DNA from: a virus
Taxonomy: Duplodnaviria > Caudoviricetes
IMG/VR virus record: IMGVR_UViG_3300006133_000325
DNA length: 64,000 nt
Strand: one strand, 5' to 3'
Positions 6,064 through 45,269 of the stretch are shown here, in pieces. Every line of letters starts with the position of its first letter. Within the stretch, counting starts at the first letter, position 1. The notes under the pieces were generated by a model. That model worked only from the letters and a program-made list of their open reading frames with translations. It did not search any database and was not told the DNA's origin. Position numbers and translations under genes: made by a program.

Positions 6064-6605
6064 AATGTCACTTCTCCATTTCTAATAGATTTTTGTATGT
6101 CAATTATCCTTTGGTTATGACTACCTTTAAATGCCAAATGAATATCACGATTTTCATCTTGATACAAACCATCTACCAAAATATCACACAATGATAAAAT
6201 CTGTTGTCGTTTCCATCTTCCAACAGAAAGCTTCTCTTGTGTTAGGGGATGATAATGCCATTTCGGATCAAAAATATGTTCCCAATTATATCCAGAATAA
6301 ATCCAAATCTTTTTTACTGGTGATAAAACACGTATTTCATAAACCAAATCTCTTATTCCCTTTAGGTTTTCTTCCGCAAGAGGTTCGCCACCTAATATGG
6401 AAATACGTTTTATATATGACCTATTAGCTAATTTTAAAAACTCTGCTTTTATTTCGTCTGTCCATTCTTTTCCTGAGTTAAAACTCCATGTTTCAGGATT
6501 AAAACAATTTTTGCAATGAAATGAACACCCTTGGACAAAAAGAGAGATTCCCACTCCCTCTCCATTACTTATATCCATACTTCTAATGCTTGCATATCTC
6601 ATCAA
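6054..6605 (-). CDS. nrdG: Anaerobic ribonucleotide reductase activating protein
   Basis: DISNGEGVGISLFVQGCSFHCKNCFN, LGGEP, FKGSHNQRII. Confidence 0.97.
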   Translation of the reverse strand: MMRYASIRSMDISNGEGVGISLFVQGCSFHCKNCFNPETWSFNSGKEWTDEIKAEFLKLANRSYIKRISILGGEPLAEENLKGIRDLVYEIRVLSPVKKIWIYSGYNWEHIFDPKWHYHPLTQEKLSVGRWKRQQILSLCDILVDGLYQDENRDIHLAFKGSHNQRIIDIQKSIRNGEVTLWE

Positions 6606-8863
6606 GAATCACATCCTTTATTCCTATGTTCAATATCGTCTAAATGAACAAACCGATCATGAATATCTCCTAACCTTCCTTGGTTCCACCCGTTAGTTGC
6701 TGTACCAAGGTAGCCGCAAGTACGTCTCACAACATTCATTTTATTTGTATCTCTATTATGACAATTCGGACATTCCCAAATAAGTCTATTATTTTTGTCA
6801 ATAAGCGTAATTTCCCCATCATAACCACATACTTGGCAATAATCACTTTTAGTATTAAGTTCTGCATACATAATATTATCATAGATGAATTTAATTACTT
6901 CCAATACTGCAGGTATATTATTTTGCATATTGGCTGTTTCAATATAAGAAATAGCGCCTCCTGGGCTTAATTTTTGAAATTTAGCCTCAATATGTAACTT
7001 TTCAAATGGATCAATCTTTTCAAATACTGGAATATGGTAAGAATTTGTCACATAATCACGATCTGTTATACCTTTTACTATTCCAAATCTTTCTCTTAAC
7101 TTTCTCGCAAACTTATAAGTAGTTGTTTCAAGTGGCGTTCCATATAGGCTATAATCAATATTCTCTTTCTCTTTCCATTGTCTACACTTGTCGTTTAAAG
7201 CTTGCATAACTTCTAATCCAAATTTTTCGCCAATTCCCTCATCACTATGACTATTGCCGGTCATATATTTTACACATTCATAAAGACCTGCATACCCTAA
7301 TGAAATAGTAGAATATCCATTATGTAATAATTTATCAATCGTTTCTCCTTTTTCTAATCTTGCTAATGCGCCATACCTCCACAAAATAGGAGCGACATCC
7401 GAATAGACACCTTCCAATCTCTCATGTCTCAAACGCAATGCTTTATGACATAGTTCTGTCCTTTCTTCAAACAGTTTCCAAAACTTATCCATATCACCTT
7501 CCGATGACAATGCAATATCTGGTAAATTTATTGTGACAACTCCTTGATTAAAACGACCATAATATTTATGTTTATCAGAAAGATAGTTTTTTGCATTTGC
7601 TACATTTCCGACTCCATTATCTGTAAATCTATCTGGTGTAAGAAAAGATCTGCAGCCCATACAAGTATATACATCTCCTTTTAGTTCAAACATTACTTTT
7701 TCGGAAATGTAATCAGGAACAAGTCTTTTTGCAGTACACTTTGCAGCAAGTTTTGTAAGATACCAATATGGACTACCCTCTACAATATTATCCTCTTCCA
7801 ATACATAAATCAGTTTAGGAAATGCTGGAGTAATCCAAACTCCTTGCTCGTTCTTAACTCCTTTATATCGCTGCTCTAACATTTCTTGTATTAACAGTGC
7901 TAAATCTTTTTTCTCTCTTTCGTCTTTAGCTTCATTTAAGTACATAAATACTGTAAGAAATGGAGCTTGTCCGTTTGTCGTCATAAGAGTAATAATTTGA
8001 TATTGTATAGTTTGTATCCCTTTTTTGATTTCGTTCTTAACACGCATTTCTGTGATTCTGTCTATTTCATGATTTATACAAGCTAAAGAATCATCTTTAT
8101 ATACATAAGAATTATTAACCCATTCGTTCTCAACTTCTTTTCTAATCTTTTGGCGACTTACTTCTACAAAAGGAGCTAAGTGCGCCAGGCTTACGCTCTG
8201 TCCTCCATATTGACTTGAAGCAACCTGAGCTATAATTTGGGTAGCAATATTACATGCCGTAGAAAAGCTGTGCGGCTTCTCAATTAAGGTTTCACTAATT
8301 ACAGTTCCATTTTGTAACATATCTTCTAAGTTGATAAGAGAACAATTGTGCATAAATTGTCCGAAATAATCTGCATCATGAAAATGCAATATCCCCTCGT
8401 CGTGCGCCTGGACAATCTCTGGAGGAAGTAAATATCTTCGTGTCATGTCAGTACTTACAATGCCTGCCATATAATCTCTTTGAGTCGTAGATAATCTTGG
8501 GTTTTTATTAGAATTTTCATTCTTCCAATAATCACTGTTACCTGTAAGAAGTTCTTCCATTTCTATATCTGTTGTATTAGAATTTTCTCTTTGAAACTCT
8601 CTGATACTTCTATAACCCTCATATGCTTTTGCTGTAAGTCTCTGCTTTTTACTAATCAGTTTATCATAAACCATAGTTTCTATATCGGAAATACTTATCT
8701 CTTCTTTTTCTTTGCATAATTCATAAATCTCATTTGCAATGTCTATAGCAATTTTTTCTTTTACAATCCCAGAACCATTTTTCATTGCTTTTAAAACAGC
8801 GCTAGAAATTTTATCTTTTTGAAAATCAACTAATGTGCAATCTCTTTTAATTACTTTTACCAT
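6602..8863 (-). CDS. nrdD: Anaerobic (class III) ribonucleoside-triphosphate reductase with ATP cone
   Basis: VIKRD ATP cone, HFHD, MGCRSFL, YVTNSYH, CQVCG...CPNC, RRTCGYLG glycyl-radical loop. Confidence 0.97.
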   Translation of the reverse strand: MVKVIKRDCTLVDFQKDKISSAVLKAMKNGSGIVKEKIAIDIANEIYELCKEKEEISISDIETMVYDKLISKKQRLTAKAYEGYRSIREFQRENSNTTDIEMEELLTGNSDYWKNENSNKNPRLSTTQRDYMAGIVSTDMTRRYLLPPEIVQAHDEGILHFHDADYFGQFMHNCSLINLEDMLQNGTVISETLIEKPHSFSTACNIATQIIAQVASSQYGGQSVSLAHLAPFVEVSRQKIRKEVENEWVNNSYVYKDDSLACINHEIDRITEMRVKNEIKKGIQTIQYQIITLMTTNGQAPFLTVFMYLNEAKDEREKKDLALLIQEMLEQRYKGVKNEQGVWITPAFPKLIYVLEEDNIVEGSPYWYLTKLAAKCTAKRLVPDYISEKVMFELKGDVYTCMGCRSFLTPDRFTDNGVGNVANAKNYLSDKHKYYGRFNQGVVTINLPDIALSSEGDMDKFWKLFEERTELCHKALRLRHERLEGVYSDVAPILWRYGALARLEKGETIDKLLHNGYSTISLGYAGLYECVKYMTGNSHSDEGIGEKFGLEVMQALNDKCRQWKEKENIDYSLYGTPLETTTYKFARKLRERFGIVKGITDRDYVTNSYHIPVFEKIDPFEKLHIEAKFQKLSPGGAISYIETANMQNNIPAVLEVIKFIYDNIMYAELNTKSDYCQVCGYDGEITLIDKNNRLIWECPNCHNRDTNKMNVVRRTCGYLGTATNGWNQGRLGDIHDRFVHLDDIEHRNKGCDS

Positions 8864-16521: not shown

Positions 16522-17055
16522 TTATTTTATCAAATATCTTAAATAGTACTGGAACGTTGCCAATATAAATATCGGGCTTAATTCTTTTTGTGGCATAAAG
16601 ACCATCTCTAATCCATATTTAGCATTAAAGCTATGTAGCGATCCTAAAAAACTTTTAGAGTTATACTTTGTATTATAATTTCCCTCTATCAAGTCTTTGT
16701 AAGTAGCATTTTCTATCAAAAGATATTTTCTTTTCGCATAGCAACGGCTCCATTCATCATTAAAACGTTCTCTTGTTTGAGCAAGGCATCCTGATAGTTC
16801 TTCTAAAGAATTCTTTCTCTCTAGGATAATGTCATTATAGAAAAACTGTTTGAATGGTAAATCTAATTCTGGTATTGCTTCCAAGCAGAAGCTATAATCT
16901 CCCGCTGGAAGTCCCATTACTTCATACTGAATTTTGTGTTTATCCCAGTATTCTAGTAAATGCAAATTTGCTTTTTCGCGACTATCGACTAAGATAATCA
17001 TCTTTTTCAAAATCTTTTGAATCTCTGCGTCTGTATATTTTCTTCTATTTAACAT
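16522..17055 (-). CDS. ERCC4-domain nuclease
   Basis: ILVDSRE, GDYSF, ILERKNSLEEL. Confidence 0.9.
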   Translation of the reverse strand: MLNRRKYTDAEIQKILKKMIILVDSREKANLHLLEYWDKHKIQYEVMGLPAGDYSFCLEAIPELDLPFKQFFYNDIILERKNSLEELSGCLAQTRERFNDEWSRCYAKRKYLLIENATYKDLIEGNYNTKYNSKSFLGSLHSFNAKYGLEMVFMPQKELSPIFILATFQYYLRYLIK

Positions 17056-19061
17056 ATCTTATATTCACTCACCCACCACTCCTTTTCGTCCGTTTCTATA
17101 AATTTAGTTCCCACTTTCTTCATTTTCGGTTTTCTATATTGCTGCTCAACCTTAATGATATCTCCACGTTTAATAGGATTTTGTGCAAATATTTTCTTGC
17201 TTATCTTAATTGGTATCGTATTCCCATTTGCCAGAGCATATAAAGTTACACGCGGCGAATAGTCTACATTTAAATCTGTCGCCACACAATATCCAGCATA
17301 CTTCTTATCTATGATATCTATATACCCAAGTACATCCAATCTTCTTTGTACTATTTCTTTAAAAGAATCTTTTTTTGTTTCAATTTTTGAAACTATCTCT
17401 TTTAAAATAGCCTTGGAATCCATTTTCATAAACATTTTTACGGTTTCAGATTTGCAATGTTTTCTAATAATATCAAAGTCTATTTTATTTTGAAACATAG
17501 ATTCTTTCTTACACTGTTGGAGATACTTTTTATTTTTGTAAAATATCTTAAAATATTCTACGCTTTCTGTTAAAAATGACATGCTTCCAAAATCACTAAA
17601 GTAATTCATAGAAATAAGATCTCTTATTCTATTTTCTCCAATTCCATTATTTATCAGCTCTTCTAATAGTTCGATAAAATCTTCATAATGTTTTAATCCA
17701 ATCCTGTAAAGGGTGTCTGCCATATTTTGTGAAAATGACTTAATAGATGCCAAAGACGGGTTTATACATCTATGTTCCTTGTCGATTGAAAATTCTCTGT
17801 TATCTAAGCCAAATTTGTAATCTCCATTCTTTATCCCAAAAGCACGTTGCATTTCCTGTTTATAAGCAGTTACTTTATCTTTTTCCCCCTTTTCTGATAA
17901 ATGCTGCATCATTACAGCATAAAATTCATAAGGATAATTTGCTTTTAAATATGCACCATACACACTATCATAAGCATAGGAATAAGCATGAGAAGCATTA
18001 AACGCATATTTTGAAAAAGCTTCTACAATATCCCATGTTTTTTCAAATCCTTCTTCCTTCCCTGTGTGCGCTATCCATCCTGTCAACAGCTTTTCTTTAA
18101 GTTCTCTCAACTCTTTATCTTTAAATTTCTTTTTACTTATTTTTTTAATAATAGCATAGGTTTCTGTTTGCTCTATCCCAAGCCAGCCTAAATATGTCAT
18201 AACATTTTCTTGATACATAATATAATGAAAACTATCTTCTAATATATTATCCAATTCTTGGATGCCAGTAGAATATGGTTTTCGGTCTAAAAAATTCTGT
18301 AATTGTGTTTTAAATCCTGGTCTAAGAGCTGCTACCAATGCCGTCAATTCCTGCATATTTTGAGGCTTATATTTTATGCAGCATTGCCGTCCAAAATCAG
18401 ATTCACATTGATTTATTCCAAGCGTATAACCATTTTTATATACCTCCCATGTCTTATTATCTTTTTCTACTATTTTTGTTATTTGCGGAACTGTATAGGT
18501 CGAGATTCCAATACGTTCAAAGATTTTATTTATCGTAAGCCAAATATCAACTTTTAATAAATCATTTTTAACAAACTTATAGTTTTCAGCAACCATTCCG
18601 TCTATAACAGTTGTTATAACACTATTATTAACATCGCTTCCATCATCATTTCCAGACACGCAGCGAATAAGCCCTATTTCTCTTTTTATGTTTCCGCCAT
18701 AAATCAAGTAACCGCATGGTGCTTGTGATTTCGCGTTGATAATACCCTGATATTTTTTGCTTTCATCTAAATAGCCATGATACTTTTTATCAACGAAGCT
18801 ATAAATATCTATAGCTTCTTTTTCTTCTTTTGAATCTGCCTGTTTTAACGCTTTTTCATATAGGTTAATTTGAGAGGTTACTTCATTTGCAATATCAAAA
18901 TCTAGTCCTTGTGACTTTGCATATAACTTAAATGCAGATGATTTTTGCAATGGTTTATAGGAAATCATCGGATAGGCATGTCCACCATCCCCATATATCT
19001 CTGTCATTATCTCATCTTGTGCTTCTGCAAACACTTCTGGATTACCTAAGTTTAGATCCAA
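17049..19061 (-). CDS. dnaE: DNA polymerase III alpha subunit, exon 2
   Basis: LDLN completes the catalytic SLPD|LDLN; KNDLL, GINQCES, AALRPG, MYQE, FSKYAFNASHAYSY, YLKANYPYEFYA. Confidence 0.92.
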   Translation of the reverse strand: MDLNLGNPEVFAEAQDEIMTEIYGDGGHAYPMISYKPLQKSSAFKLYAKSQGLDFDIANEVTSQINLYEKALKQADSKEEKEAIDIYSFVDKKYHGYLDESKKYQGIINAKSQAPCGYLIYGGNIKREIGLIRCVSGNDDGSDVNNSVITTVIDGMVAENYKFVKNDLLKVDIWLTINKIFERIGISTYTVPQITKIVEKDNKTWEVYKNGYTLGINQCESDFGRQCCIKYKPQNMQELTALVAALRPGFKTQLQNFLDRKPYSTGIQELDNILEDSFHYIMYQENVMTYLGWLGIEQTETYAIIKKISKKKFKDKELRELKEKLLTGWIAHTGKEEGFEKTWDIVEAFSKYAFNASHAYSYAYDSVYGAYLKANYPYEFYAVMMQHLSEKGEKDKVTAYKQEMQRAFGIKNGDYKFGLDNREFSIDKEHRCINPSLASIKSFSQNMADTLYRIGLKHYEDFIELLEELINNGIGENRIRDLISMNYFSDFGSMSFLTESVEYFKIFYKNKKYLQQCKKESMFQNKIDFDIIRKHCKSETVKMFMKMDSKAILKEIVSKIETKKDSFKEIVQRRLDVLGYIDIIDKKYAGYCVATDLNVDYSPRVTLYALANGNTIPIKISKKIFAQNPIKRGDIIKVEQQYRKPKMKKVGTKFIETDEKEWWVSEYKIC

Positions 19062-20333
19062 CCTTTTGTACCGTTACTTTCGTAATACTTTAACACTTTT
19101 ATCATTTAAAAGTCGGAGTAGACTATACCATCATCGTTGATATTATCTCGGATGTCCATTGGTAGTCGTTGCGAGCTTCCCATGTCTATAAGATTTAGGG
19201 CTATCTCTCAGGATTATCCAATCCTTATTCTTGTTACCATACCATTATATTTAGTAATGCCACATTTCGATTTCTCTAATGCTTGGTAAATAAGGCTCTA
19301 AGAACTTTCCCTGATATTCTGGATTTTCTATACATATCACTATGTATAGCGACTTAAAAAATCTTTTACATACAAATATTCATTATTATCAATTACATAT
19401 TTTCCTATTTGCGAATAAATTTTTTTGAATTTTTTTATTCCAATTTCTTTTTTTGTTAAAAAATCTTTTCTATTATTAAATGTTTCTTTGGTTTGTGGAG
19501 AACAAATGGGGCATTTTTCTGACGTGTATAATGCTTTTAGTAATTCAAAAAATCGGACATCATCATCCAATAGCGATGAATCGAAATAGCGCCAATGCAT
19601 GTCTGCTGCTAATCGCTTTTTGTCTCTCAAAGCTATTGATAAACTGCTTTCGCTTTTAATTCCATATTTTATTTGCGCGTTTGAAATCATATCAAATACT
19701 TCTCCAGTCTCTAAGCATATTATAGCTGTAGCCCTTGGATTGTTTGTTCCAACAGCTAACTTGTTTGTTTTTCTCATTTGACTAAGATGAGCTTTTTGCT
19801 CCTGACTCCATTTGTGGTTGTAATTTGGATTTTTGCATCCGCTTACCAATTTGCTCATTTTATCTCTGAATTCCTTTGATTGATATACACTATCTGGAGC
19901 ATTTCTCAAATCAATCATCTTTTGTCTAAATTCATCATTCTTCCATAGCTTTTTTGAACTATTGGATATAATTTTTCTCTGAATATCATTCATTTTATAT
20001 CCTGATATTCCTTCTCCTCCATCAGTTCTATTCGTAAGCCTATAATTTGTATTGTTTCTATAATATGCAATCAATTCCTTTTCTTTATTAAAAGCTTCAC
20101 TTTCAAATAAACTATCTTCAACTATTCGGACATCACATTCATGAGTATTATACATATCCATAAAAAATTTATTTCTTTTTAATGTTTTGTACCGATTATC
20201 TTTCCCTTTCCCAACATAAAAAACTTCCCCAGTTAGTTTTATAAACCATTCGTAAACATAGTAAACATTTTCTATTTATTTAACATCCCCCTTCAATAAT
20301 ATGTTTAATATATATGTAAAGATTTTTTTGTTA
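19062..20333 (-). ncRNA. Group I intron in dnaE
   Basis: Exon 1 ends in U (GAU), intron ends in G; core elements P (AATATCAGGGAA), Q (AATCCTGAG), R (CTCGCAACGACTACCA) and S (ATGGTATAGTCTA); splicing restores the reading frame. Confidence 0.9.
19340..20275 (-). CDS. Intron-encoded GIY-YIG homing endonuclease with NUMOD3/NUMOD1-like repeats
   Basis: Frame is open upstream of the listed ORF to ATA 20275: YYVYEW...FYVGKG...R; EKELIAYY, LTNRTDGGEG, SGCKNPNYNHKWS, IICLETGEVF. Confidence 0.85.
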   Translation of the reverse strand: MENVYYVYEWFIKLTGEVFYVGKGKDNRYKTLKRNKFFMDMYNTHECDVRIVEDSLFESEAFNKEKELIAYYRNNTNYRLTNRTDGGEGISGYKMNDIQRKIISNSSKKLWKNDEFRQKMIDLRNAPDSVYQSKEFRDKMSKLVSGCKNPNYNHKWSQEQKAHLSQMRKTNKLAVGTNNPRATAIICLETGEVFDMISNAQIKYGIKSESSLSIALRDKKRLAADMHWRYFDSSLLDDDVRFFELLKALYTSEKCPICSPQTKETFNNRKDFLTKKEIGIKKFKKIYSQIGKYVIDNNEYLYVKDFLSRYT

Positions 20334-21668
20334 ATCGGGTAACGATCTTGTCTGTAAAATTCTGGTTTTTGACATAAATCTATCTGGATAAAGCTTAACA
20401 GGCGAGGCAAACCTATCTATATTGCTAAATCCCAAAAGCGAGTTGACATAATAAGAGACACCACTACCTCTACCAGTTTTTGTTACTATTCCCCCTTTCT
20501 CAATTCCTCTTTTGACTAATTTATAATCAATCAAAAAGTAATCTGCCATATGTGTTTCTATAATTGCATCTAACTCATATTTAATTCCTTCTTCGTAAAG
20601 CTTTCTTTTTTCTTCTGGAATAGTATTTTGGATATCATTCCATTTTTCATAAACCAAATTTGTCAACGCAGCATCTTTTTCAGATTGACTCATGGAAAGA
20701 TTACTGGATGGTAATTTTATTTCTTTGTCAAAAAATAATTCATCAAAAGTAAGAATGAGATCTGTATTTTTAATGCATCTATCTATTTCCCTTTCTGTAA
20801 GAACACCCTGCTTTTTTAATCGCTTCCTTACTGTTTCTTCATCAGGATAATCCATATACCATCCAGTCTCTTCATCCTCTTCTTTTGTATATCCCTTTCT
20901 TCTTGTAGAAACATAATTGTTCCGTTCTATATAATCACTTTCTAATATGAAATGGCTGTCATATCCAAAAATAATGTCGATTCCATATTTTTTACTTATA
21001 GAAATAATTCTTTTGTTTAATTTTTTTTGCTCTGGCGTATCATGATATTGTATCTCCAGAAAAAAATTCTCGCCAAAATGTTGATGTAATTTTTCGGTAA
21101 TTTCCTCAATATCATCATATTTCCAATAGGCAATGCAGGCGGTTGTCACGAATACATTTTCAGGTTTAATTCTAAGAAATAATTCTAGATCCAATCTTGG
21201 TTGACCATAATACCCATCAATATTAGCATCAGATAATGCCTCGTTGATGTCTCTTCGTCCCTCTTCATTTTTCGCAAGTAGTATAATATGACAATTGCTT
21301 CTATCTTTTTTTAAAAGAAGGTTTCCATCCTTATCTTTTTTATATTCTCCTGTTTCTTTATCTATAAATGGATATTCTTTCTTTCTATCTTTTACCCAAT
21401 ATGCCTCTGCTCCAAATACAAATTTTAAAAGTGATTTTTCATATTCTTCTTTTGTTATTTCTCCTTTTTCAAATCTTTCCTTTGCCTTATTATTATTTTC
21501 TTGTACTAATTCATATGGTTCATAATAATTCGACTGAAATCCATGCTCTACGCTTGAGATTACTTTCTGTCCTAGGTCTTTCGCCCTTTTTATGTAATCT
21601 TTATAGGAAACAGCACAGTCGGCTACTAGAACATTAGAGTACCAAGTATGCTTATGATAATTCTGGAT
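20334..21668 (-). CDS. dnaE: DNA polymerase III alpha subunit, exon 1 (PHP domain); apparent ATC start
   Basis: Frame is open from ATC 21668: QNYHKHT...EHG...FGAEAY...HIILLAKNEEG...YYGQPR, FLEIQYH, DSHF, GRGSGVS, SLPD. Confidence 0.9.
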
Positions 21669-22498: not shown

Positions 22499-24424
22499 TT
22501 ATTTATCTGGAAAAATATCTTCAGGACTTGGATGCAAACGATCTGTATAGGGAAGCCTATCCGCATAAACCTTCTTATCCCAGGCAAATTTCTTATCATA
22601 TTCGGCATAATCCGTATAAAATCTTCTTGATGTTATGTCATACCATAATCCTAGCTGAAAATCGGTTTTCCCTAACAATCTGTCTTTGATTACAGTTAAA
22701 ACAACATCATATTTGCCCCATTTTGCTTTTGGATCTTCCTTTTCTTTTTTGGATGTTCTACGTAAACCGATTGACCGCATAGCAAGATTGATAATATTAG
22801 ATGAACCAGAAATATCATACATTTCGATATCAGAATTAGTATCCTGTGTCTTTCTTGGATGGGCAATCAATACTACCGCAACATTAAATTTCGCTGCAAA
22901 TTTTATCAGGCGGTTAATAAAATTCGTTTGTTCTGTATTTTTATCGCTTTCCGAACAATTCAGGTCGATCATCATAAGATTATCCAAAACAATCAATTTG
23001 CACCCGAACTTCCTAACACATTCTTCCGCAGATTTCATAACAGAATCTACGTCGTTCGGCTCATCATCCCTATAAATAAACAATTTTTTATTATAGAAAT
23101 CCTGTAATATCTTTTTTGTCTTATAAGGGACTATATAATATTTCTTGCCTTCTGAAGTAGAATGTTCCTCCATATTTCTTCGCCCAGCAATGATAGTGTT
23201 AAACCAGTTGGCAGACATCCTTTCTGGCATTTCTTTTGAAAAGAGAAATACAGCACTTCCGCTATCTATGGTTTCTGCTATTGTTTGATCTATAATACTT
23301 GTCTTTCCACTTCCTGGCCTGCCAGACAATATTGTTAATGTACCATAAAATATTTTCAGTAATTCGTTATCTAAAGGCTTAATTCCTGTTTTTACCCCTT
23401 CCATTTGGGATATATCCAACTCTTCAATTTCGGAATAATCAATCACGCTTTTTACCGGAACATCTTTTGCTTCTGATATTAAGCCCATTACATAACTAGC
23501 TCCTCCAGCCTGCAAACAATCATTGATATCATTAAGCAAAAACTTCTTGCCATCCTTATCTATGTAGTGAGTAGGAGTTTCGATATATTTCGTTCGCCAT
23601 GTCCCCAGCCTATAGATACATTCTTTTCTCATCTTAATTCCGGCCTCATCATTATCAGACCAAATTATGATGGAATCAAATAAATCTAGCCAGTCCCAAT
23701 TTTCTTCAATCCAATGAAGATTCCCAGCCCCAAGAGGTACGCTAACGGTATTCAAATATCCGGCTTCAATAGCACTGGCACAGTCTGTCTCCCCCTCTGT
23801 AATAAGCAAAGGCTTTGCTGGATTTACTCTGTTCATATTAAACAATATCGAGGAAGTGTCGGAATCTTTTTGACACCATGTTTTACTTTGTCCAGAATGT
23901 TTATCAATTGTTCTTGCAGGACGATATTTTACCATTGTCAAAACATCGTTCGTATCATAAAAATTAAAAACGCCATTCCCATGTTTGTCCTCTCGTATAT
24001 CTAAGTAGTCAATCACGTTTTTTGATATGCCGCGCCTTCCCCAGTACTCAAGTACTTTCCTTCTATCATTGATAGGTTCTTCATGTGGATATCTATAGTT
24101 ATATTTTGTTTTTACATTTTTCTCTCCAAAACTGTATTCGATTCCTACTCTTTCAAATAAGTATTTTGAAGCCTCTAAAAATGTATTACCCTTTTCCATT
24201 AACACATCAATAATATCCACAGTCTTGTTACAACCAAAGCAATGCCAATTATACTTTTTCTTGTTATAAATAAAGCTTGCAGTATCTTCATCATGATAAG
24301 GACAACATGCTTTTAAATTTTTTCTATCAAAATCATCAAGCTCCAGTAATTCTGCCATAATAAATGCGTTTTCGTCGCCTAATTTCTCTTTTGCCTTTTC
24401 TATTTCATTCCTTTCAATGATCAA
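22499..24424 (-). CDS. Primase-helicase (Zn finger + TOPRIM + DnaB/SF4, T7 gp4/Twinkle-like)
   Basis: CCPYH...HCFGC, ITEGETD, DNDEAG, GRPGSGKT, IVLDNL, LIAHPRK, ISGSSNI. Confidence 0.92.
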   Translation of the reverse strand: MIIERNEIEKAKEKLGDENAFIMAELLELDDFDRKNLKACCPYHDEDTASFIYNKKKYNWHCFGCNKTVDIIDVLMEKGNTFLEASKYLFERVGIEYSFGEKNVKTKYNYRYPHEEPINDRRKVLEYWGRRGISKNVIDYLDIREDKHGNGVFNFYDTNDVLTMVKYRPARTIDKHSGQSKTWCQKDSDTSSILFNMNRVNPAKPLLITEGETDCASAIEAGYLNTVSVPLGAGNLHWIEENWDWLDLFDSIIIWSDNDEAGIKMRKECIYRLGTWRTKYIETPTHYIDKDGKKFLLNDINDCLQAGGASYVMGLISEAKDVPVKSVIDYSEIEELDISQMEGVKTGIKPLDNELLKIFYGTLTILSGRPGSGKTSIIDQTIAETIDSGSAVFLFSKEMPERMSANWFNTIIAGRRNMEEHSTSEGKKYYIVPYKTKKILQDFYNKKLFIYRDDEPNDVDSVMKSAEECVRKFGCKLIVLDNLMMIDLNCSESDKNTEQTNFINRLIKFAAKFNVAVVLIAHPRKTQDTNSDIEMYDISGSSNIINLAMRSIGLRRTSKKEKEDPKAKWGKYDVVLTVIKDRLLGKTDFQLGLWYDITSRRFYTDYAEYDKKFAWDKKVYADRLPYTDRLHPSPEDIFPDK

Positions 24425-24788: not shown

Positions 24789-25208
24789 CTAATTAAATGG
24801 TAATTCCTCATCAATACCATCTGGAATATTGAAAAAACCATCCGAAGGTTGAGTTGATGTATTACCTCCTGTTCCATTAGAAGCATTATTATTCTTGCTT
24901 TCAACAAACTCTGCTTCCTCTACAACAACATCTGTCGTATATACCTTGGTTCCGTCTTGCTTTGTATAATTGCCGGTTTGAATACGACCAGAAATACCTA
25001 TCATCATACCTTTTGTAAAGTATTTGTTGATAAATTCCGCAGTTTTATGAAAAGCCACACAACTAATAAAATCTGCGTCATAATTACCTTCTGAATTTTT
25101 AAAACGTCTGTTTACTGCAATGGAGAAGCGTGTTACCACGCTATCCCCTTGAGTGTTTCTGCTTTCCGGATCTCTTGTTAAACGTCCAACAATCATTACT
25201 TTATTCAT
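24789..25208 (-). CDS. ssb: Single-stranded DNA-binding protein
   Basis: MNKVMIVGRLTRDPE...ADFISCVAF...GRIQT...DEELPFN. Confidence 0.97.
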   Translation of the reverse strand: MNKVMIVGRLTRDPESRNTQGDSVVTRFSIAVNRRFKNSEGNYDADFISCVAFHKTAEFINKYFTKGMMIGISGRIQTGNYTKQDGTKVYTTDVVVEEAEFVESKNNNASNGTGGNTSTQPSDGFFNIPDGIDEELPFN

Positions 25209-25227
25209 AAATTAATTCCTCCTCTAA

Positions 25228-26190
25228 TTACGCAATCGGCTTTAATGTTTTTAGTTTTTCCAAACAATCTTTTGCCTTATCAAAGTCACGAAGTGCGTTT
25301 GGATTCCCACTAGCGGTAAATTTTTTCAATTCAGCCATAAGTTCTTCGTTCTTAGTACCTCCCAAGTCAGTACATAATGCAACAATTTCTTTTTTTACAG
25401 TAGCAAGATCATCTTGATATGTAGACTGTGTGCCTCCTTCAGATTCATCCCTTCCTCTTACTGGCGGGGTATATCCTTCACCGGAATTCGCCCATTTAAT
25501 AATTCTTTCTCCATAATCTTCACTTAAAAGAGTTGCAACCTCATTCTCAAAAATATGAGTATTATCTTTTTGAGCTTCCGCCATGCTTGTTTTTTGATCG
25601 ATTAGAAATGTGCAAGTAAACTCATATTCAAATCCATCACGCTGTTTCGCACCAACTCCAAGTTTCTGCACAGATGTTTTTCCGTTGTTATCCTTTGTCA
25701 TCTCATACTGGTCTTTTCCTCGCATGGTAGCAATAATATGTAGTGGAGAATCTGCGATTGCTTCGATAAATTTATTATGACGAGGAGTAATGTTTTTCCA
25801 GTTCTGGTATTGCCCGCCAGCTTGTTGATGAAGTTCAAGACATCCGCCTCTTCCTTCCCATTCGTGTGAGGATGAATCAATAATTAAAATATCGTATCCC
25901 TTTTCTACGGCAAAATTGATAAAGTCAACATACTTCTCTGGATTATGAGGAGCTTCAATGTCTACGATATCGTATTTAAACTCATTTGCATAATAATACC
26001 CACGTTTTTGCTCCGTATTCCCTAGTAAAATTTTTGCCTTCTTTCCGGTTTCTTGTTCAATTTCACGAGCCATCCCAGTTGCAAGCCTAAGTGCTGAATA
26101 AGTCTTTCCTCCACCGCTCGGAGCCATTAACGCAATTTTACAATAGATCTTTTCTCTTTTCGCTTCCTTAATTTCAAAACTATATCCCAT
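25228..26190 (-). CDS. AAA_24 ATPase, Sak4-like phage recombinase
   Basis: ALMAPSGGGKTYSAL, LIIDSSSHEW, HIIATMRGK, QRDGFEYEF; next to ssb. Confidence 0.8.
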   Translation of the reverse strand: MGYSFEIKEAKREKIYCKIALMAPSGGGKTYSALRLATGMAREIEQETGKKAKILLGNTEQKRGYYYANEFKYDIVDIEAPHNPEKYVDFINFAVEKGYDILIIDSSSHEWEGRGGCLELHQQAGGQYQNWKNITPRHNKFIEAIADSPLHIIATMRGKDQYEMTKDNNGKTSVQKLGVGAKQRDGFEYEFTCTFLIDQKTSMAEAQKDNTHIFENEVATLLSEDYGERIIKWANSGEGYTPPVRGRDESEGGTQSTYQDDLATVKKEIVALCTDLGGTKNEELMAELKKFTASGNPNALRDFDKAKDCLEKLKTLKPIA

Positions 26191-26236
26191 TCCATTTCCT
26201 CCTATAAAATAATTGTTTGCCTATTTTTTATATGAA

Positions 26237-26402
26237 CAGCCTTTTAAGCTGGAACATAAAGTAACTCTATATAAAAATCTATCTAAACAGTGATTTTTGG
26301 CATAACTTAACCAAGGGTATGCTGTTTTACCACCCAACGAATACAGCGATTCAGTTGTCACAATAGAGAGTTTTACGATATTAGATAGAAATTATGTTTT
26401 CC
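26237..26402 (-). ncRNA. Candidate structured RNA with two pseudoknots upstream of the AAA_24 gene
   Basis: Several complementary segment pairs, with two sets crossing (see findings). Confidence 0.6.
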
Positions 26403-26406
26403 TTAT

Positions 26407-26438
26407 CCGCTTTGTAGCTATAAAAATCTACAAAGCGG
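26407..26438. terminator. Hairpin downstream of the metallophosphoesterase
   Basis: CCGCTTTGTAG...CTACAAAGCGG perfect 11-bp stem. Confidence 0.6.
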
Positions 26439-26450
26439 TTTTGATAAGAT

Positions 26451-27212
26451 TCAAAGAATCCTTATAATCTGTTCGTAAATGCAGGTAGCTCTCTCCCAAT
26501 AGAAATTAACATTTTCGTGCATATGCCCAAATATCCATTGCTTATATTCAATCGTTTGTTTAATTTTCTGTAAATAGTCTGTAAATCTATCTCTCTCGTA
26601 CAAACCAGAACCGCCATCCATTTGACTTAGCAATGATGTGTAAGGGCTATGAGTAATAATGTAATCTACCTTGTAATTCTGCTTTTTGAGGTTATTTAGT
26701 CCCTCTTCCATTTCTTCTTCATTTGGCAACTCTCTTTCCCACCAGCTCACATGATTGATCCGATACAAAGCAAAAGGATCTTTATCTAATCTTTTCTTCT
26801 TTTCTTTAAAGCTTGGATCATCTGGTTCTAAGATACCTGCAGAAATATCATGGCTGCTTGCTCCACCAAAGGTAAAGAATGATTTTCCACTGATATTAAA
26901 AATCTGTCCTCTCATAAGGTGAATTACTGATGGACGAATAAAATTAACTTTTCCTCCATACCATTCTTCCACTGGTAAGCTATCTAAAATGTCATAATTC
27001 TCATGATTTCCTGATACGAACAATGTAGTAAATGACTTATTTTCCAACCAATCTAAATTGTACTTCTCTCTATTAGAATTATCCCAAATACCAAAGTCAC
27101 CTGCTATTATAACATAATCATCTTTTGACATTTCCTTTTGTTCCGGAAAAGAATCCATCTTCAATCTGTTCATCCAGTCACCATGTGTATCTCCTGTAAC
27201 CCAAACCGCCAT
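26451..27212 (-). CDS. Calcineurin-like metallophosphoesterase
   Basis: GDTHG, AGDFG, GNHEN, ITHS, FGHMH. Confidence 0.92.
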   Translation of the reverse strand: MAVWVTGDTHGDWMNRLKMDSFPEQKEMSKDDYVIIAGDFGIWDNSNREKYNLDWLENKSFTTLFVSGNHENYDILDSLPVEEWYGGKVNFIRPSVIHLMRGQIFNISGKSFFTFGGASSHDISAGILEPDDPSFKEKKKRLDKDPFALYRINHVSWWERELPNEEEMEEGLNNLKKQNYKVDYIITHSPYTSLLSQMDGGSGLYERDRFTDYLQKIKQTIEYKQWIFGHMHENVNFYWERATCIYEQIIRIL

Positions 27213-27282
27213 TTTATTTAACTCCTTTTACTCTATAATTCAAATTCCTATAATATTTTCATTATCTTTTTCTCTCTTCTTC

Positions 27283-27684
27283 TTAATCAATTCTTTCTAC
27301 ATTCACTGGAAGCCACATATTCGGATTGAAATTTAAAGTATATCTATATTTTGAAACAGCATTTGCTCCTAAATTTAGATCTTCAACAATATAAGTCACA
27401 TTATCACTTAACCCCACAAAGTGCTTTACATATGTACCACCATCTTCAACGAGGATTTCGAGCTGATTATCATCTACATCTGCCGTGATCGACATTTTTC
27501 CAGTCATTTGAAACAATACGTCTCCTTCTATACAGTTAATAACGGTCAACTGCCGCACCACATTAAAATTATCCGCCTGTTTGGTCAAGTTATAATTAAC
27601 TCTATCCGCCTCTGAATCACATCCTGCTAACAACCCTGTCATCATAAACACTAACAAAACTAAAAAACAAAGATTTCTTTTCAT
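27283..27684 (-). CDS. Phage lipoprotein
   Basis: Signal peptide with lipobox LAGC; ADRVNYNLTKQADNFNVVRQLTVIN typical of a common phage lipoprotein family. Confidence 0.8.
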   Translation of the reverse strand: MKRNLCFLVLLVFMMTGLLAGCDSEADRVNYNLTKQADNFNVVRQLTVINCIEGDVLFQMTGKMSITADVDDNQLEILVEDGGTYVKHFVGLSDNVTYIVEDLNLGANAVSKYRYTLNFNPNMWLPVNVERID

Positions 27685-27739
27685 GACATAATTTCTCCTT
27701 TTATCTTGTATTTTTACAAAAATGTTACTAATTCATTTT

Positions 27740-27895
27740 GATACGGATAAATGGATTCAGTGCTTGTATATGTTCATTTCTATTTCCGACACGCCTTGCT
27801 AGAGGTTATGCGCACTAACTCAAAGGAGTGTATCGTTCGTGTTTATATTTTTGCGTCTTATCCTGCTATTATCCGTATCCGTTTTGGCTGAATGA
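27740..27895 (+). other. Candidate type I toxin-like cassette (folded mRNA plus 18-aa hydrophobic ORF 27839..27895)
   Basis: GATACGGATAA/TTATCCGTATC closing stem; ACACGCCTT pairs with the RBS AAGGAGTGT; ORF MFIFLRLILLLSVSVLAE. Confidence 0.4.
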
Positions 27896-28005
27896 GTACA
27901 AGATAATTTTTCTATCTTTTAGAAAAACTAAATTGAGCCTTAAATTTCATCCATTTAATCATGAGGAACTTACTTCATGAACCAGTTAGATTTTGATACT
28001 TACTT

Positions 28006-39294: not shown

Positions 39295-40083
39295 TTATTT
39301 ATTGTTGAGCCAATCCTTATATTGGCGCAAAATTTCAGTATATAACTCCTCATCACTCATACCATCCATATCGCAAACGGCAGTAAATCCTGTATTGTCA
39401 TTTTTTCTTCCTTTCATATCATCCAAAGAACGTAAATAAGAAAAATTGTCATTTCCGATACCAATAAACTGCACAAACATATTGTAATTGGAAAGTTCCT
39501 TAATGATTTCATTTGTTTCCGTCTTATCCCAATTATCTCCATCTGTAATAAAAATGATAAATGCCGGAATGCAACTTGGTTCTACGTCTTTATAGTACTT
39601 CACGATGTCTTTTAAAACTGGCGCATAATTTGTCCCGCCCATATTCATACGGGATTTCATCATAACCTCCCTTACATAATTCTTATAGTTTTGAATTGTC
39701 ACAGCTTCCACTCGTTTTTGACTATCTGAAAACAGCCAAGATTCTAATTCGCCGTTATCATCAAATCGTAAAGAGATTGGAAGCAGCCTGGTAATAGTAT
39801 TCTGCACAGATCCATCTGCAAACAGCCCGGACATACTACCGGAATAGTCCATTGCTAATGCCACTCTTGCAACATGTTTTGACATATCAATTTTTCCTGT
39901 TTTAGACATATCAATCAATACTTTATCTAAGTTTTTTGCCGACTTAGACATATCAATCGTCCCTACCATTTTTTCAGTTGATTCCTTTTGCGGTATTTCT
40001 CTACTTTGTGCTGGAGTACCGGAAATATCCGGATACTCCTCTTTGTTCTTGCTAAAAAGATTCTTAAATAGTCCCATACTCAA
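39295..40083 (-). CDS. vWA domain protein (TerF-associated vWA type)
   Basis: MIDAS DYSGSM, GGTNYAPVL, FITDG, FVQFIGIG, DNTGF. Confidence 0.88.
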   Translation of the reverse strand: MSMGLFKNLFSKNKEEYPDISGTPAQSREIPQKESTEKMVGTIDMSKSAKNLDKVLIDMSKTGKIDMSKHVARVALAMDYSGSMSGLFADGSVQNTITRLLPISLRFDDNGELESWLFSDSQKRVEAVTIQNYKNYVREVMMKSRMNMGGTNYAPVLKDIVKYYKDVEPSCIPAFIIFITDGDNWDKTETNEIIKELSNYNMFVQFIGIGNDNFSYLRSLDDMKGRKNDNTGFTAVCDMDGMSDEELYTEILRQYKDWLNNK

Positions 40084-42712
40084 ACTCCTTTTCTTTTATA
40101 TTATTTCTTTTTACAATCGCTTTTCTAATCAAATCTACTGGAATTACCAAAAGAGAAAGACCTATAACGATAAGCCATTGAATCAGGTTCAATGAAGTAA
40201 GTTTCAATAATTCTCCTAAAAACGTACAAGCAATCATAACTCCAACAAAGATTCCAATTGCTATCTCAACAAATAATTTATTTTTTTTCAAACCATGAAA
40301 TAGATTAAAATGTTCTGTCCGAATATTAAATCCATTAAATACAGCCATGAAGCAAAGTATCGTAAATCTAGCAGTCAAAAATTCCAAATCACTCGTAAAA
40401 TATCCGTGTAGAGATGTAAACATCATAAGGAAATACACCCCGATAAAAGTACATGCGGCAATTGCGATTCTTCCCTTTGCTCCTCTGATAAATAAGCCAG
40501 AGCCTTTTTTAATAGGAACCTCACATATATATTCTTTTTTAGAAGGTTCTCCGCCAAAGGAAAGAGAGTTTAAAGAATCCATAATAATATTTACGATCAA
40601 TATTTGAACAGATGCTAAAACAGACATACCAGAAGCAAAAATTGGATACAAAATACCTAAAATCAATAATGAAATATTGATAGGAAGTTGGAACTCTAAA
40701 AACATCATAATGTTGTGCATAAATGTCCTGCCAAGTTCTACTGCCTTTACAGTGGAAGCAAAATTATCATCTGTTAAAACAATATCACTTGCTTCTTTTG
40801 CAACATCGCTTCCGCTTTGCATACCAAAACCAACATCTGCTCTCTTTAAGGCAGGTGAATCATTTACTCCATCCCCTGTCATCGCAACCGATTTATCAAT
40901 TTCCTGTGCCAATGTCACCAAACGCAATTTTGTATTTGGAGAACATCTTGAGATAACGCGAAGAGAAGGAAGAACCTCTTTTACTTCTTCATCCGTCATT
41001 GCTTCAAATTCGTCATTTGTCAATGCAACCTCTCCATCTTTATAAATACCACATTCCTTTGCCACAGCTACGGCAGTTTCAATACAATCTCCTGTAATTT
41101 CGATTACTTGTATCCCTGCTTTTTGTGCTGTCTTTACTGCTTTTGGCACCTCTTCTCTTATCGGATCTACCACTCCTATAACCCCTAAAAGCGTCATTTC
41201 ATGTGGCAGATGATTTTCTATCAATGCTTCATTTTTAACTGCCAGGGCAATACACCTCATAGATTTCGAGGTCATTGTTTTAATTGTATCACTTAGATTG
41301 CTTTTCATTTCTTTTGTGAATTCAAATACCGTTCCATTCTCCTGCATGTGTTGCGAACAAAAATCAATAATTCTCTCTGGTGCGCCTTTATAATATGTAA
41401 TGCCATTTTCTGCGGTAAAGGCAGAGTATTTATTTAAGCTACTAAATACTTGCTTGTCCTTCATTTTGTTGTTTTTTACAATTTCTGAGTAATTCGACGG
41501 ATTTACAAGGCTTAATACTGCTCGGTCAATAGAATTACCTCCTATTATGCTTCCTTCTCTGTCAAAGGTTGCACTATTATTTAGTACTATATTTTTCTGA
41601 ACAGTATCCCAAAGAGTAGAATTTTTTAACAACTCTTTTCCACTTCCATCTATCACTGTTTTAGGAGACATCATTCCTGTTGTTAAAGTTCCAGTTTTAT
41701 CTGTACAAATGATATCAACATAGGCTAATTCTGGAATCTTATTTGGATTTTTGGCAAGAATATTGAATCTTTCCATAGTTTTTACATTTTGCTTTGTAAC
41801 CAATTTCACAATCAAAGGAAGCCCTTCCGGAACTGCTGCTACGATAATGGTTAATGCCACAGAAAAGTTTTGTGCAAATTTTTGTGCCAAGCTAAATACA
41901 TTATCTGAAAAATAATTCTCAAATCCTACCTTTAAAATTCCCGAAGTCACCAATACGATAAATGTTAAAATAGCAGCCGCGGTTCCCCATTTTGATATAA
42001 AATCGCCTAAATTATCAAGTGCAATATTTAATGCTGTTTTAGGTGATTCCAGCGTTTGCATTTTTACCATTGTATCACCATTAATCGTATTCACTCCAAC
42101 ATCTGTTACTACCATCTTCCCTTCGCCTGACATTACTGTTGTACCAGCAAAGAGACAATTTTCATTTGTATAAGCATCGGTTGATGTCGTTTTCTTATGA
42201 ATATATTCATCTACTGGCTTTTTCTTACACTCTTTTGTTTCTCCATTGATAGCAGCATTATTAACCGAAATTTTTCCTTCTACTATATACCCATCTGCAA
42301 AAATTTCATTTCCTAATCCAAGGCATACAATATCTCCTACTACAATATCATCTTTATTGATGGTTTCTAATTTCCCATCTCTAATCACATCGCAATACCT
42401 TACAGATGTTTTTTCTCTTAACTCAACTGCAGATTTTTGTACTCCAATCCCTGTTTTTACGGCAATTCCTGTCACGATTCCAAGCACAACCATAATCATA
42501 GCTGGCTCTGAAAATTCCATTACTCCAACAAAAGTTAGTCCAAATTGTAAAACAGCGATAGAAATAAGGATCATTGTAATTTTTTCACTTAATGCTTCCT
42601 TTGCAAACTCATACCATTTTTTTAATTTTGGCTCTGGTAGTTTATTGCTGCCGTATTTCTTTCTGCTTTTTATAACCTCATTTTGAGTTAAACCTTTCAT
42701 TTTTTCCTCCAT
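40064..42712 (-). CDS. P-type cation (Ca2+-like, P2) transporting ATPase
   Basis: PEGL, DKTGTLT, KGAPE, DPIR, ITGD, MTGDGVNDSPALK; about 10 TM segments. Confidence 0.95.
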   Translation of the reverse strand: MEEKMKGLTQNEVIKSRKKYGSNKLPEPKLKKWYEFAKEALSEKITMILISIAVLQFGLTFVGVMEFSEPAMIMVVLGIVTGIAVKTGIGVQKSAVELREKTSVRYCDVIRDGKLETINKDDIVVGDIVCLGLGNEIFADGYIVEGKISVNNAAINGETKECKKKPVDEYIHKKTTSTDAYTNENCLFAGTTVMSGEGKMVVTDVGVNTINGDTMVKMQTLESPKTALNIALDNLGDFISKWGTAAAILTFIVLVTSGILKVGFENYFSDNVFSLAQKFAQNFSVALTIIVAAVPEGLPLIVKLVTKQNVKTMERFNILAKNPNKIPELAYVDIICTDKTGTLTTGMMSPKTVIDGSGKELLKNSTLWDTVQKNIVLNNSATFDREGSIIGGNSIDRAVLSLVNPSNYSEIVKNNKMKDKQVFSSLNKYSAFTAENGITYYKGAPERIIDFCSQHMQENGTVFEFTKEMKSNLSDTIKTMTSKSMRCIALAVKNEALIENHLPHEMTLLGVIGVVDPIREEVPKAVKTAQKAGIQVIEITGDCIETAVAVAKECGIYKDGEVALTNDEFEAMTDEEVKEVLPSLRVISRCSPNTKLRLVTLAQEIDKSVAMTGDGVNDSPALKRADVGFGMQSGSDVAKEASDIVLTDDNFASTVKAVELGRTFMHNIMMFLEFQLPINISLLILGILYPIFASGMSVLASVQILIVNIIMDSLNSLSFGGEPSKKEYICEVPIKKGSGLFIRGAKGRIAIAACTFIGVYFLMMFTSLHGYFTSDLEFLTARFTILCFMAVFNGFNIRTEHFNLFHGLKKNKLFVEIAIGIFVGVMIACTFLGELLKLTSLNLIQWLIVIGLSLLVIPVDLIRKAIVKRNNIKEKEFEYGTI

Positions 42713-44552: not shown

Positions 44553-45269
44553 CTATTCCCAATCCTCTTCTGGATATTCATGGTCAATTGTCTCCATATT
44601 TACTAATCCTGTTCGCTTCATATCTTTCCAATAACAGTACTCATCACCATCCTGAATTACTATATATTTCTTATTGATAAGATATTCTTCAAGAGAGATA
44701 TTCTCCTTTTTTAAAAAATTACTCAAAATATCTTCATCTACACATCCTGTATATGGCTCTTCATAATGCCACCATCCACTTGCTTCCCAATATCCGACTG
44801 CAATCTCCCAATCATTTCCTTTTTGTAATAAATATTCTTTTAATTCTTCTTCAGTCTTTCCATGTATTTGATAATAATCGTTATTTTCATGTATTTTAGA
44901 ATCTTTATTCGCAATTATACGATTACCCATCGGAAGTTTAATCTTCTTAAGACCTGGTATGTATTTCAGCGCGAGTGAAACAAGTTCTTTATAAACCTCA
45001 TCATTGTATTCATGAACCAAAGATGCACAAGCATACAGCCATTTATCTGCAAATGTTCCTATAGCCCTAAATGGGCTTCTCCCAAACTCCATATCATGAA
45101 TCCATGGTTTCCAAACACAAGACACCTCTCCTGTATCTGCATCCCTTTCTAGGTATATTCCATTTAGAATTTCTTCTTTAGTATATTTATCTTCTCGTTT
45201 CATAACCGTAAAAGAGTGCATACTACTTGAGTTTGTTTCAAATACACCTCTTCTAATTTGTGTTTTCAT
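44553..45269 (-). CDS. Conserved phage protein with FETNSSS motif
   Basis: MKTQIRRGVFETNSSSMHSF. Confidence 0.75.
   Translation of the reverse strand: MKTQIRRGVFETNSSSMHSFTVMKREDKYTKEEILNGIYLERDADTGEVSCVWKPWIHDMEFGRSPFRAIGTFADKWLYACASLVHEYNDEVYKELVSLALKYIPGLKKIKLPMGNRIIANKDSKIHENNDYYQIHGKTEEELKEYLLQKGNDWEIAVGYWEASGWWHYEEPYTGCVDEDILSNFLKKENISLEEYLINKKYIVIQDGDEYCYWKDMKRTGLVNMETIDHEYPEEDWE

Follow-up and report, generated by a model that had tools for sequence, protein, structure and literature searches.

Does the 260 nt gap (26191-26450) at the head of a phage replication/recombination operon hold a functional element, and of what kind? The locus lies in a 64-kb window, by which we mean the whole stretch of phage DNA that was analysed, and all genes around it are on the minus strand. 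The gap is preceded by a metallophosphoesterase gene (26451-27212; Pfam Metallophos 6.8e-13, phrog_1649) and followed by gene 1 of the operon, which encodes an AAA_24/Sak4-like ATPase (25228-26190; Pfam AAA_24 6.3e-13, phrog_1366 1.5e-71). After the ATPase gene come, on the minus strand, an SSB gene (24789-25208), a gene for a 119-aa protein, a fused primase-helicase gene (22499-24424) and a PD-(D/E)XK nuclease gene; farther downstream on the same strand, past the nuclease, a DnaE-type polymerase is encoded. A sequence-only reading had placed a compact double-pseudoknot RNA at 26237-26402, with its helices given on the plus strand, and had proposed a riboswitch, a ribozyme or a replication-control RNA for the operon.

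Other genes of the window are described here as its setting. The DnaE-type polymerase consists of two minus-strand ORFs (20331-21194 and 17049-19061; region 17049-21194) separated by a NUMOD3 homing-endonuclease-like ORF (19340-20161), an arrangement suggestive of a split gene or an intron; at Rfam thresholds, introns of groups I and II were detected nowhere in the 64-kb window. On the other side of the gap, the metallophosphoesterase adjoins a Phage_VG64 protein, annotated in PHROGs as a recombination directionality factor (26451-27684, minus). Because gp47, the directionality factor of Bxb1, is itself phosphoesterase-like, this pair may by analogy serve excision and/or replication. The minus strand also encodes a 736-aa protein in which AAA_33 kinase, phosphoesterase and T4-type RNA ligase 1 domains are fused (45253-47463), and which is predicted from them to be a complete Pnkp-Rnl-type enzyme for RNA repair; a P-type cation-transporting ATPase of full length (882 aa; 40064-42712), an unusual phage cargo lying within the phage gene array; and an anaerobic ribonucleotide reductase, NrdD, with an ATP-cone (6602-8863), as would suit a phage whose hosts are strict anaerobes. 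Strong hairpin-plus-T-run terminators bound a tyrosine integrase gene (899-2119, minus) on either side, near 872 (plus strand, -24 kcal/mol) and, as a bidirectional pair, near 2390/2428; the long array of minus-strand genes probably ends in this region (860-2430).

A distant DNA search with the locus matched one record, MT835469, of an uncultured phage from human gut; the matching DNA lies a short way ahead of the AAA_24 homologue there. Comparison of the two phages revealed a sharply conserved core amid otherwise unalignable intergenic DNA. IMG/VR was scanned with exact patterns from two parts of the core, one in P1 (the first hairpin described below) and one in the downstream boxes, independent of the stems. 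As the patterns were exact and 14-20 nt long, the set of relatives is biased toward conserved cores; the second pattern constrained none of P1, P2 and P3, and P1 was still invariant in the copies that it found. The scans combined yielded at least about 120 distinct copies after context filtering, and most of the IMG/VR matches listed lie in contigs of 90-185 kb. For a scan of bacterial genomes the first pattern was loose, and most of its 120 rows were chance matches, which were removed by context; the element was present in the genome of a Roseburia isolate and in MAGs of uncultured Lachnospiraceae, several of them from mouse gut. These occurrences indicate that the hosts are Lachnospiraceae and that the phages are temperate. 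We take the order of their replication genes to recall that of SPbeta.

Since the surrounding genes are all on the minus strand, a cis-acting RNA must be read on that strand, and the parts of the element are given accordingly. The conserved core comprises 112 nt (26341-26230) with P1, P2, the invariant boxes and P3, and aligns with 99 relatives; its fold is most likely a series of three consecutive hairpins with invariant single-stranded boxes. In P1 (26315-26335), GGGUG (26335-26331) pairs with UACCC (26319-26315), as is also seen in the MFE fold, and the 11 nt loop has an invariant CAGCA at its end. A single unpaired U separates P1 from P2 (26298-26313; UGGU.../...GCCA): in the alignment, the 3' arm of P1 ends at column 27, the invariant U occupies column 28, and P2 begins at column 29. 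Directly after P2 is the invariant single-stranded box AAAAUCACUG (26288-26297), whose columns 85-93 show 96-100% identity in 97 distinct copies, the sole variation being U/C at column 88. Two AUAGA boxes (26282-26278 and 26270-26266, together 26266-26282), 12 nt apart in an A/U-rich linker, are conserved in the alignments, and the AUAGA-AUAGA and AUAGA-CACUG spacings drift by up to 4 nt among relatives. An invariant UGUUCC (26256-26251) runs into P3 (within 26237-26256), in which CAGCU (26251-26247) pairs with GGCUG (26241-26237). An A/U-rich spacer (26191-26236) ends in the Shine-Dalgarno sequence AGGAGG (26203-26198) ahead of the ATG at 26190, and its portion 26236-26204 is A/U-rich and outside the consensus structure, likewise in relatives.

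The 5' flank of the core (26342-26406) is variable. It contains a semi-conserved AACUGAA (26356-26350) and inverted copies of the AUAGA box, and it is unalignable between subfamilies except for AACUGAA and an AAWWUUCC box. The stop codon of the metallophosphoesterase gene is directly followed by a perfect 11-bp hairpin (26407-26438), whose T-run, TTTTGAT (tail to 26444), is present on the plus strand only. By its sequence the hairpin resembles a terminator of transcription opposed to the genes, and an antisense RNA could cross the element in the phage of the window; no equivalent hairpin is conserved in the relatives.

The structure was evaluated on 97 distinct copies (among the matches listed) aligned to the model. 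The three-hairpin structure was paired in 98.8% of cells. Seven pairs changed on both sides, giving 122 cells compared with 37.8 in shuffles, and none of 500 shuffles reached 122; these counts lean toward the model, since the alignment was fitted to it, and the same compensatory changes are visible in raw MAFFT alignments. When the partners were slid, pairing dropped to 22-55%. Covariation in homologues, which the sequence-only reading had named as a check, was thus found, and it resides in P2 and P3. In P2, three of the five pairs have changes on both sides; the stem and loop span 18-40 nt with pairing kept, for example as GGUUAAAUU/AAUUUAGCC or GGCUUA/UAAGCC, and insertions of 10 and 22 nt are tolerated with the stem extended and the flanking boxes unchanged. 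Three pairs change on both sides in P3 (GC/AU 60:36, UG/GC 53:33 and CG/UA 63:18). P1 is near-invariant, with 99.6% of cells paired, one compensatory U-A and two breaks; because it hardly varies, P1 is predicted rather than demonstrated by covariation. Its GGUGG may alternatively pair with an invariant YCACU box, with which all 97 copies are compatible through bases that do not vary. Pseudoknots GAACA:UGUUC and AGCA:UGUU are likewise compatible with the alignment through bases without variation, and variants of the P1 loop carry no compensating change.

The pairing is specific to one strand. A G-U pair becomes an A-C mismatch on the opposite strand. One P2 pair was G-U in 65 copies, one P3 pair in 53 and the last P1 pair in 97, and no A-C or C-A cell was observed at the two covarying G-U pairs. 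RNAalifold on 71 diverse full-length intergenic regions gave -12.4 kcal/mol for the sense strand vs -3.8 kcal/mol for the antisense strand. Together, the G-U pairs and these energies indicate that the folded strand is the gene-sense strand. Single-sequence folding of 26237-26402 was unremarkable (z = -1.26 on the minus strand and -1.17 on the plus strand), and folding of the whole 260-nt gap gave z = -2.35. As for coding potential, a 46-aa ORF (26221-26361, minus; M/L-G-G-R/K-T-A-Y-P-W...) was rejected: relatives have an in-frame TAG and frame-shifting indels of 1-3 nt. With this, the only ORF, broken in relatives, the region is non-coding.

These data also settle how much of the sequence-only reading can be kept. 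Its strings are all present in the plus strand: the outer pair GGAACATAA (26251) and TTATGTTTTCC (26392); AACTCTAT (26263) and ATAGAGAGTT (26363), which it drew as crossing TCTATCTAA (26278) and TTAGATAGA (26381); and GGGT (26315) and ACCC (26332), drawn as crossing GCTGT (26321) and ACAGC (26343). A repeat finder recovered the main inverted pairs as I6, I7 and I15, and the 26407-26438 hairpin as I2. Two of the proposed stems survive when read on the minus strand, where they are conserved in relatives, GGGT/ACCC as P1 and TTGG/CCAA as P2. The outer pair, the two crossing pairs of 9-10 nt, GCTGT/ACAGC and GTGA/TCAC are missing from relatives; the failed helices join the non-conserved 5' flank (26342-26402), where the inverted AUAGA-box copies are their long-range partners, to conserved boxes, and the flanks of relatives lack the complements. 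Nor was the density of helices unusual as claimed, since perfect inverted repeats in 26237-26402 did not exceed dinucleotide shuffles: with arms of at least 7 nt, 3 were observed vs 1.08 expected (fraction 0.096), and the fractions for arms of at least 8 and at least 9 nt were 0.24 and 0.08. The crossing helices are therefore confined to the window and no commoner than in shuffled sequence, which leaves the double pseudoknot unsupported, and the plus-strand reading was rejected with it. What holds from that observation, besides the strings and the two stems, is the non-coding status and the presence of a structured element, conserved in relatives, directly upstream of the recombinase-SSB-primase operon; its long-range and crossing helices do not hold.

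A covariance model, R1, was built from the relatives, and genome-wide searches with it scored the top candidates per genome. In the 64-kb window R1 gave one strong match, the core at 26230-26341 on the minus strand (96.5 bits, E 1.6e-20). Weaker matches at 18892-18996, 8476-8568 and 60261-60313 all fall inside long ORFs with E of at least 0.15, so that a multi-copy promoter or repeat was rejected, and the element has no motif in common with other intergenic regions of the window beyond A/T-rich words. One copy was found in each of five out of five phage genomes (154-177 kb, CheckV 90-100% complete) and in each of five out of five Lachnospiraceae/Roseburia host genomes. The element was absent from 150 other sampled genomes of the same bacterial family (24 candidates scored per genome), and a host chromosomal motif was rejected on this ground. 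As a general feature of AAA_24 genes the element was rejected, being missing upstream of the AAA_24 homologues in five other phage lineages (L002-L006). An attP site was also rejected because the element is intact in bacterial contigs of 190 kb and 254 kb, which are judged from their size alone to hold integrated prophages. These results firmly support a highly conserved, single-copy, non-coding and structured element in large temperate phages of gut Lachnospiraceae, and its conservation, copy number, position and strand-specific pairing are matters of direct observation.

The position of the element is constant while its neighbours are not. The distance from GGUGG of P1 to the downstream start codon was 136-185 nt (median 164) in the 127 loci, among the matches listed, whose sequence extended far enough. 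The element is always co-directional with the first gene of the replication/recombination module, and this gene has a Shine-Dalgarno site. Among these 127 loci, the first gene was SSB-like phrog_2367 in 90, Sak4-like AAA_24 in 19 (the window included), Sak in 3, and a member of one of two unnamed families in 15; one phrog_2367 member has a Pfam SSB match and a weak match to the two-OB-fold Deinococcus SSB. Subtypes of the P1 loop do not track the type of first gene. In locus L049, a Sak4-like ATPase, a DnaB-like helicase and a separate primase lie downstream, compared with the fused primase-helicase of the window, and the element there scores 133 bits despite the different helicase/primase type. 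The genes upstream of the element also vary (metallophosphoesterase, DUF1653 or YopX), and the neighbouring protein is 44-74% identical among relatives. In L049 the stop codon of the upstream gene falls within the first upstream hairpin with no terminator in between, so that read-through transcription would include the element. As an observation in its own right, non-orthologous replacement across loci L007-L206 has a hot spot in the gene that opens the module, with no fewer than ten variants of SSB-like, Sak4 and Sak type behind the one conserved element. Diversifying pressure would be consistent with such a pattern; host defences that recognise the ssDNA-binding proteins of phages are one conceivable source.

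Searches for known families and signals were largely negative. The statement that no family could be assigned was borne out, Rfam 15 giving no match at gathering thresholds in the whole window. At E <= 10, three queries (25000-28000, 26150-26480 and the homologous region of L049) returned weak matches, different in each, of 13-23 bits against thresholds of 39-120, and no riboswitch or ribozyme model matched even at E up to 10. For a T-box leader there was neither an Rfam T-box match nor a U-tract terminator, and we take the hexamer GGGUGG to be the only resemblance of the element to T-box sequence. P3 is followed by only 2-4 U (GUUUAGAU, GUUCAAAU, GUUCAUAU or GUUGAUGU) and is therefore not a canonical terminator, in agreement with the earlier description of the element as not terminator-like; a terminator scan found no intrinsic terminator (G+C-rich hairpin and U run) at the element. 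The ribosome-binding site is unpaired in the RNAalifold consensus structure. The site shows no visible sequestration and P3 no U-tract, so that the element lacks both of the most frequent cis-regulatory read-outs. No sigma-A promoter with -35/-10 boxes 16-18 bp apart occurred at a position common to most of 121 copies (best 8/12), none was found on the minus strand of the window, and by eye no sigma-54, ECF, sigma-H or TcdR-type promoter fitted all subfamilies. A LexA/SOS box, which is GAAC-N4-GTTC (PMC8270828), was rejected, because the spacing of the upstream hairpin, GAAC-N5/6-GTTC, is wrong and the hairpin changes by covariation into other sequences, and UGUUCC is a half-site only. Downstream on the minus strand, from 26 kb to 2.4 kb, only weak terminator-like sites were detected, few of them canonical. 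No description of the element was found in literature searches.

Judging from sequence comparison, we lean tentatively, and with somewhat less than even confidence, toward the element being a new leader RNA that acts in cis and that a conserved factor recognises. Here we infer transcription of the element, its partner and the step that it controls. A single-copy leader at the head of the replication/recombination operon would be transcribed in the direction of the genes and would fold, in order, into P1, P2, the AAAAUCACUG box, the A/U-rich linker with its two AUAGA boxes, UGUUCC, P3, and the A/U-rich spacer with a strong ribosome-binding site. Its near-invariant nucleotides would be read by a conserved partner and not by the product of the first gene, the candidates being host RNA polymerase, a ribonuclease, the ribosome or a core phage factor. 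Expression of the operon would then be set after the start of transcription, by polymerase modification or antitermination, by mRNA processing or stabilisation, or by translational control. As the flanking genes, helicase and primase included, are exchanged while the element remains constant, the partner should be common to all these phages, that is, a host machine or a core phage factor. Several points speak against such a leader: no promoter was found upstream of P1, the downstream region offers an antiterminator few canonical terminators to act on, and the two usual read-outs are lacking, as noted above. The roughly 45 near-invariant nucleotides would also suit recognition in DNA.

Two known phage systems resemble the putative leader in part. 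The operator of T4 gene 32 is a 5' pseudoknot followed by an unstructured A/U-rich tract, and it is bound by the ssDNA-binding protein itself. Like it, the element presents a structure and then an A/U-rich, apparently unstructured tract reaching to the ribosome-binding site, ahead of a gene for ssDNA binding or annealing in a phage replication/recombination module. Unlike it, the element has no similarity in sequence or fold, and a pseudoknot is unsupported; moreover, autogenous recognition by the product of the first gene is unlikely, since this gene is swapped while the element stays constant. The put RNAs of HK022 are two stem-loops with one unpaired base between them, which act in cis on RNA polymerase and suppress termination. 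P1 and P2 are similarly one unpaired U apart, their nucleotides are strongly conserved, and the element is orientation-specific and heads a long co-directional array; a host-encoded target, as for put, would by analogy explain the invariance. In contrast to put, the stems of the element are much shorter, no promoter was identified just upstream, few canonical terminators lie downstream, and the element occurs once, as against two copies in HK022.

The chief alternative, a replication origin or an element associated with one, is possible but less likely. A transcript through the element might prime or open the adjacent A/T-rich DNA, or the displaced sense strand might fold into a primosome or helicase-loading site, with the AUAGA boxes as iteron-like sites. 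Transcript-dependent origins include T4 oriF(uvsY)/oriG, the RNA II primer of ColE1 and the ori transcript of lactococcal phage c2, and the element resembles them as a single-copy non-coding region beside recombination/replication genes with a structured sense strand, the putative transcript, and an adjacent A/T-rich tract. The single copy per genome, the replication genes adjoining it in every case, the A/T-rich tract downstream and the ATAGA boxes, of which there are two to four, partly inverted in the window, all suit an origin; a displaced single DNA strand is also compatible with strand-specific folding. Yet these known origins differ from the element, in which neither a promoter nor a skew signal was found and which is indifferent to helicase/primase type; an initiator-specific origin should co-vary with its initiator. 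There are also no DnaA boxes, the G-U wobble pairs suit RNA better than DNA, and no GC-skew switch occurs at 26.3 kb, which is weak evidence for phages. According to a review, replication of SPbeta-type phages is uninvestigated (PMC8270828), so that no known origin competes. Conjugative elements offer a further comparison. Frpo/ssi promoters and the STAXI motif (Rfam RF01728) are single-stranded-DNA motifs before ssb and anti-restriction genes of these elements, and the phage element is likewise a strand-specific folded non-coding element of mobile DNA before genes for ssDNA-binding proteins. However, no STAXI match was obtained at E up to 10, no long hairpin rebuilds -35/-10 boxes, and a dsDNA phage has no obvious single-stranded entry stage.

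The invariant boxes might instead act in DNA, as a promoter or operator to which an alternative sigma factor or a conserved regulator of the phage would bind, with P3 as a 5'-terminal mRNA stabiliser; we regard this as improbable. It is true that the invariant A-T-A-n-A-n-T-T retains the T, A, A and T positions of a -10 hexamer, that UGUUCC and P3 would fall at about +1 to +25, that sequence conservation far exceeds structure conservation in P1 and the boxes, and that the P2 insertions of +10 and +22 nt are near whole helical turns. Against this stand the lack of a sigma-A -35/-10 pair at a conserved position in 121 copies or in the window, a variable spacing of 17-21 nt from CACTG to the -10-like box, and the single copy, as a promoter class would be expected more than once per ~155 kb; P2, which would lie upstream of the putative start, nevertheless covaries as a sense-strand hairpin. 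The P2 insertions that spare the boxes and the drifting box spacing fit an RNA better than a promoter. The ligand-sensing riboswitch or self-cleaving ribozyme of the sequence-only reading is more doubtful still. Invariant loop and junction nucleotides beside a length-variable P2, followed by a P3 conserved in structure only, form the usual layout of aptamer and expression platform, and pairing of GGUGG with either UACCC or YCACU in 97 of 97 copies is a possible switch; but P3 has no alternative pairing with the core, P3 lacks a U-tract, the ribosome-binding site is free, no downstream box changes together with the variants of the P1 loop, and Rfam gives no riboswitch or ribozyme match even at E up to 10. 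Finally, the element could be a functionless linker, kept by recombination that swaps gene cassettes between phages, as its being common to phages with mosaic genes on both sides might suggest. This is very improbable, because a neutral linker would have no compensatory changes, strand-specific G-U pairs or invariant boxes, and the 97 copies show all of these next to a neighbouring protein that is 44-74% identical.

It is firmly supported that the element matches no catalogued RNA family and is conserved far beyond its neighbours. The temperate phages of 150-180 kb that carry it are common in human and mouse gut metagenomes. The alignment and covariance model are a ready seed for a new RNA family, and the 112-nt core with its testable hairpins is a concrete experimental handle. 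A bolder proposal, for which we hold out only a limited chance, is that the element belongs to an undescribed RNA class of large Lachnospiraceae phages, which would either reprogram host RNA polymerase in a put-like, factor-independent manner or serve as a primer or R-loop RNA that fires the phage origin, the roughly 45 invariant nucleotides being the contact surface for a host machine. The persistence of a near-invariant element while the genes on both sides are swapped would mark a control point common to these phages.
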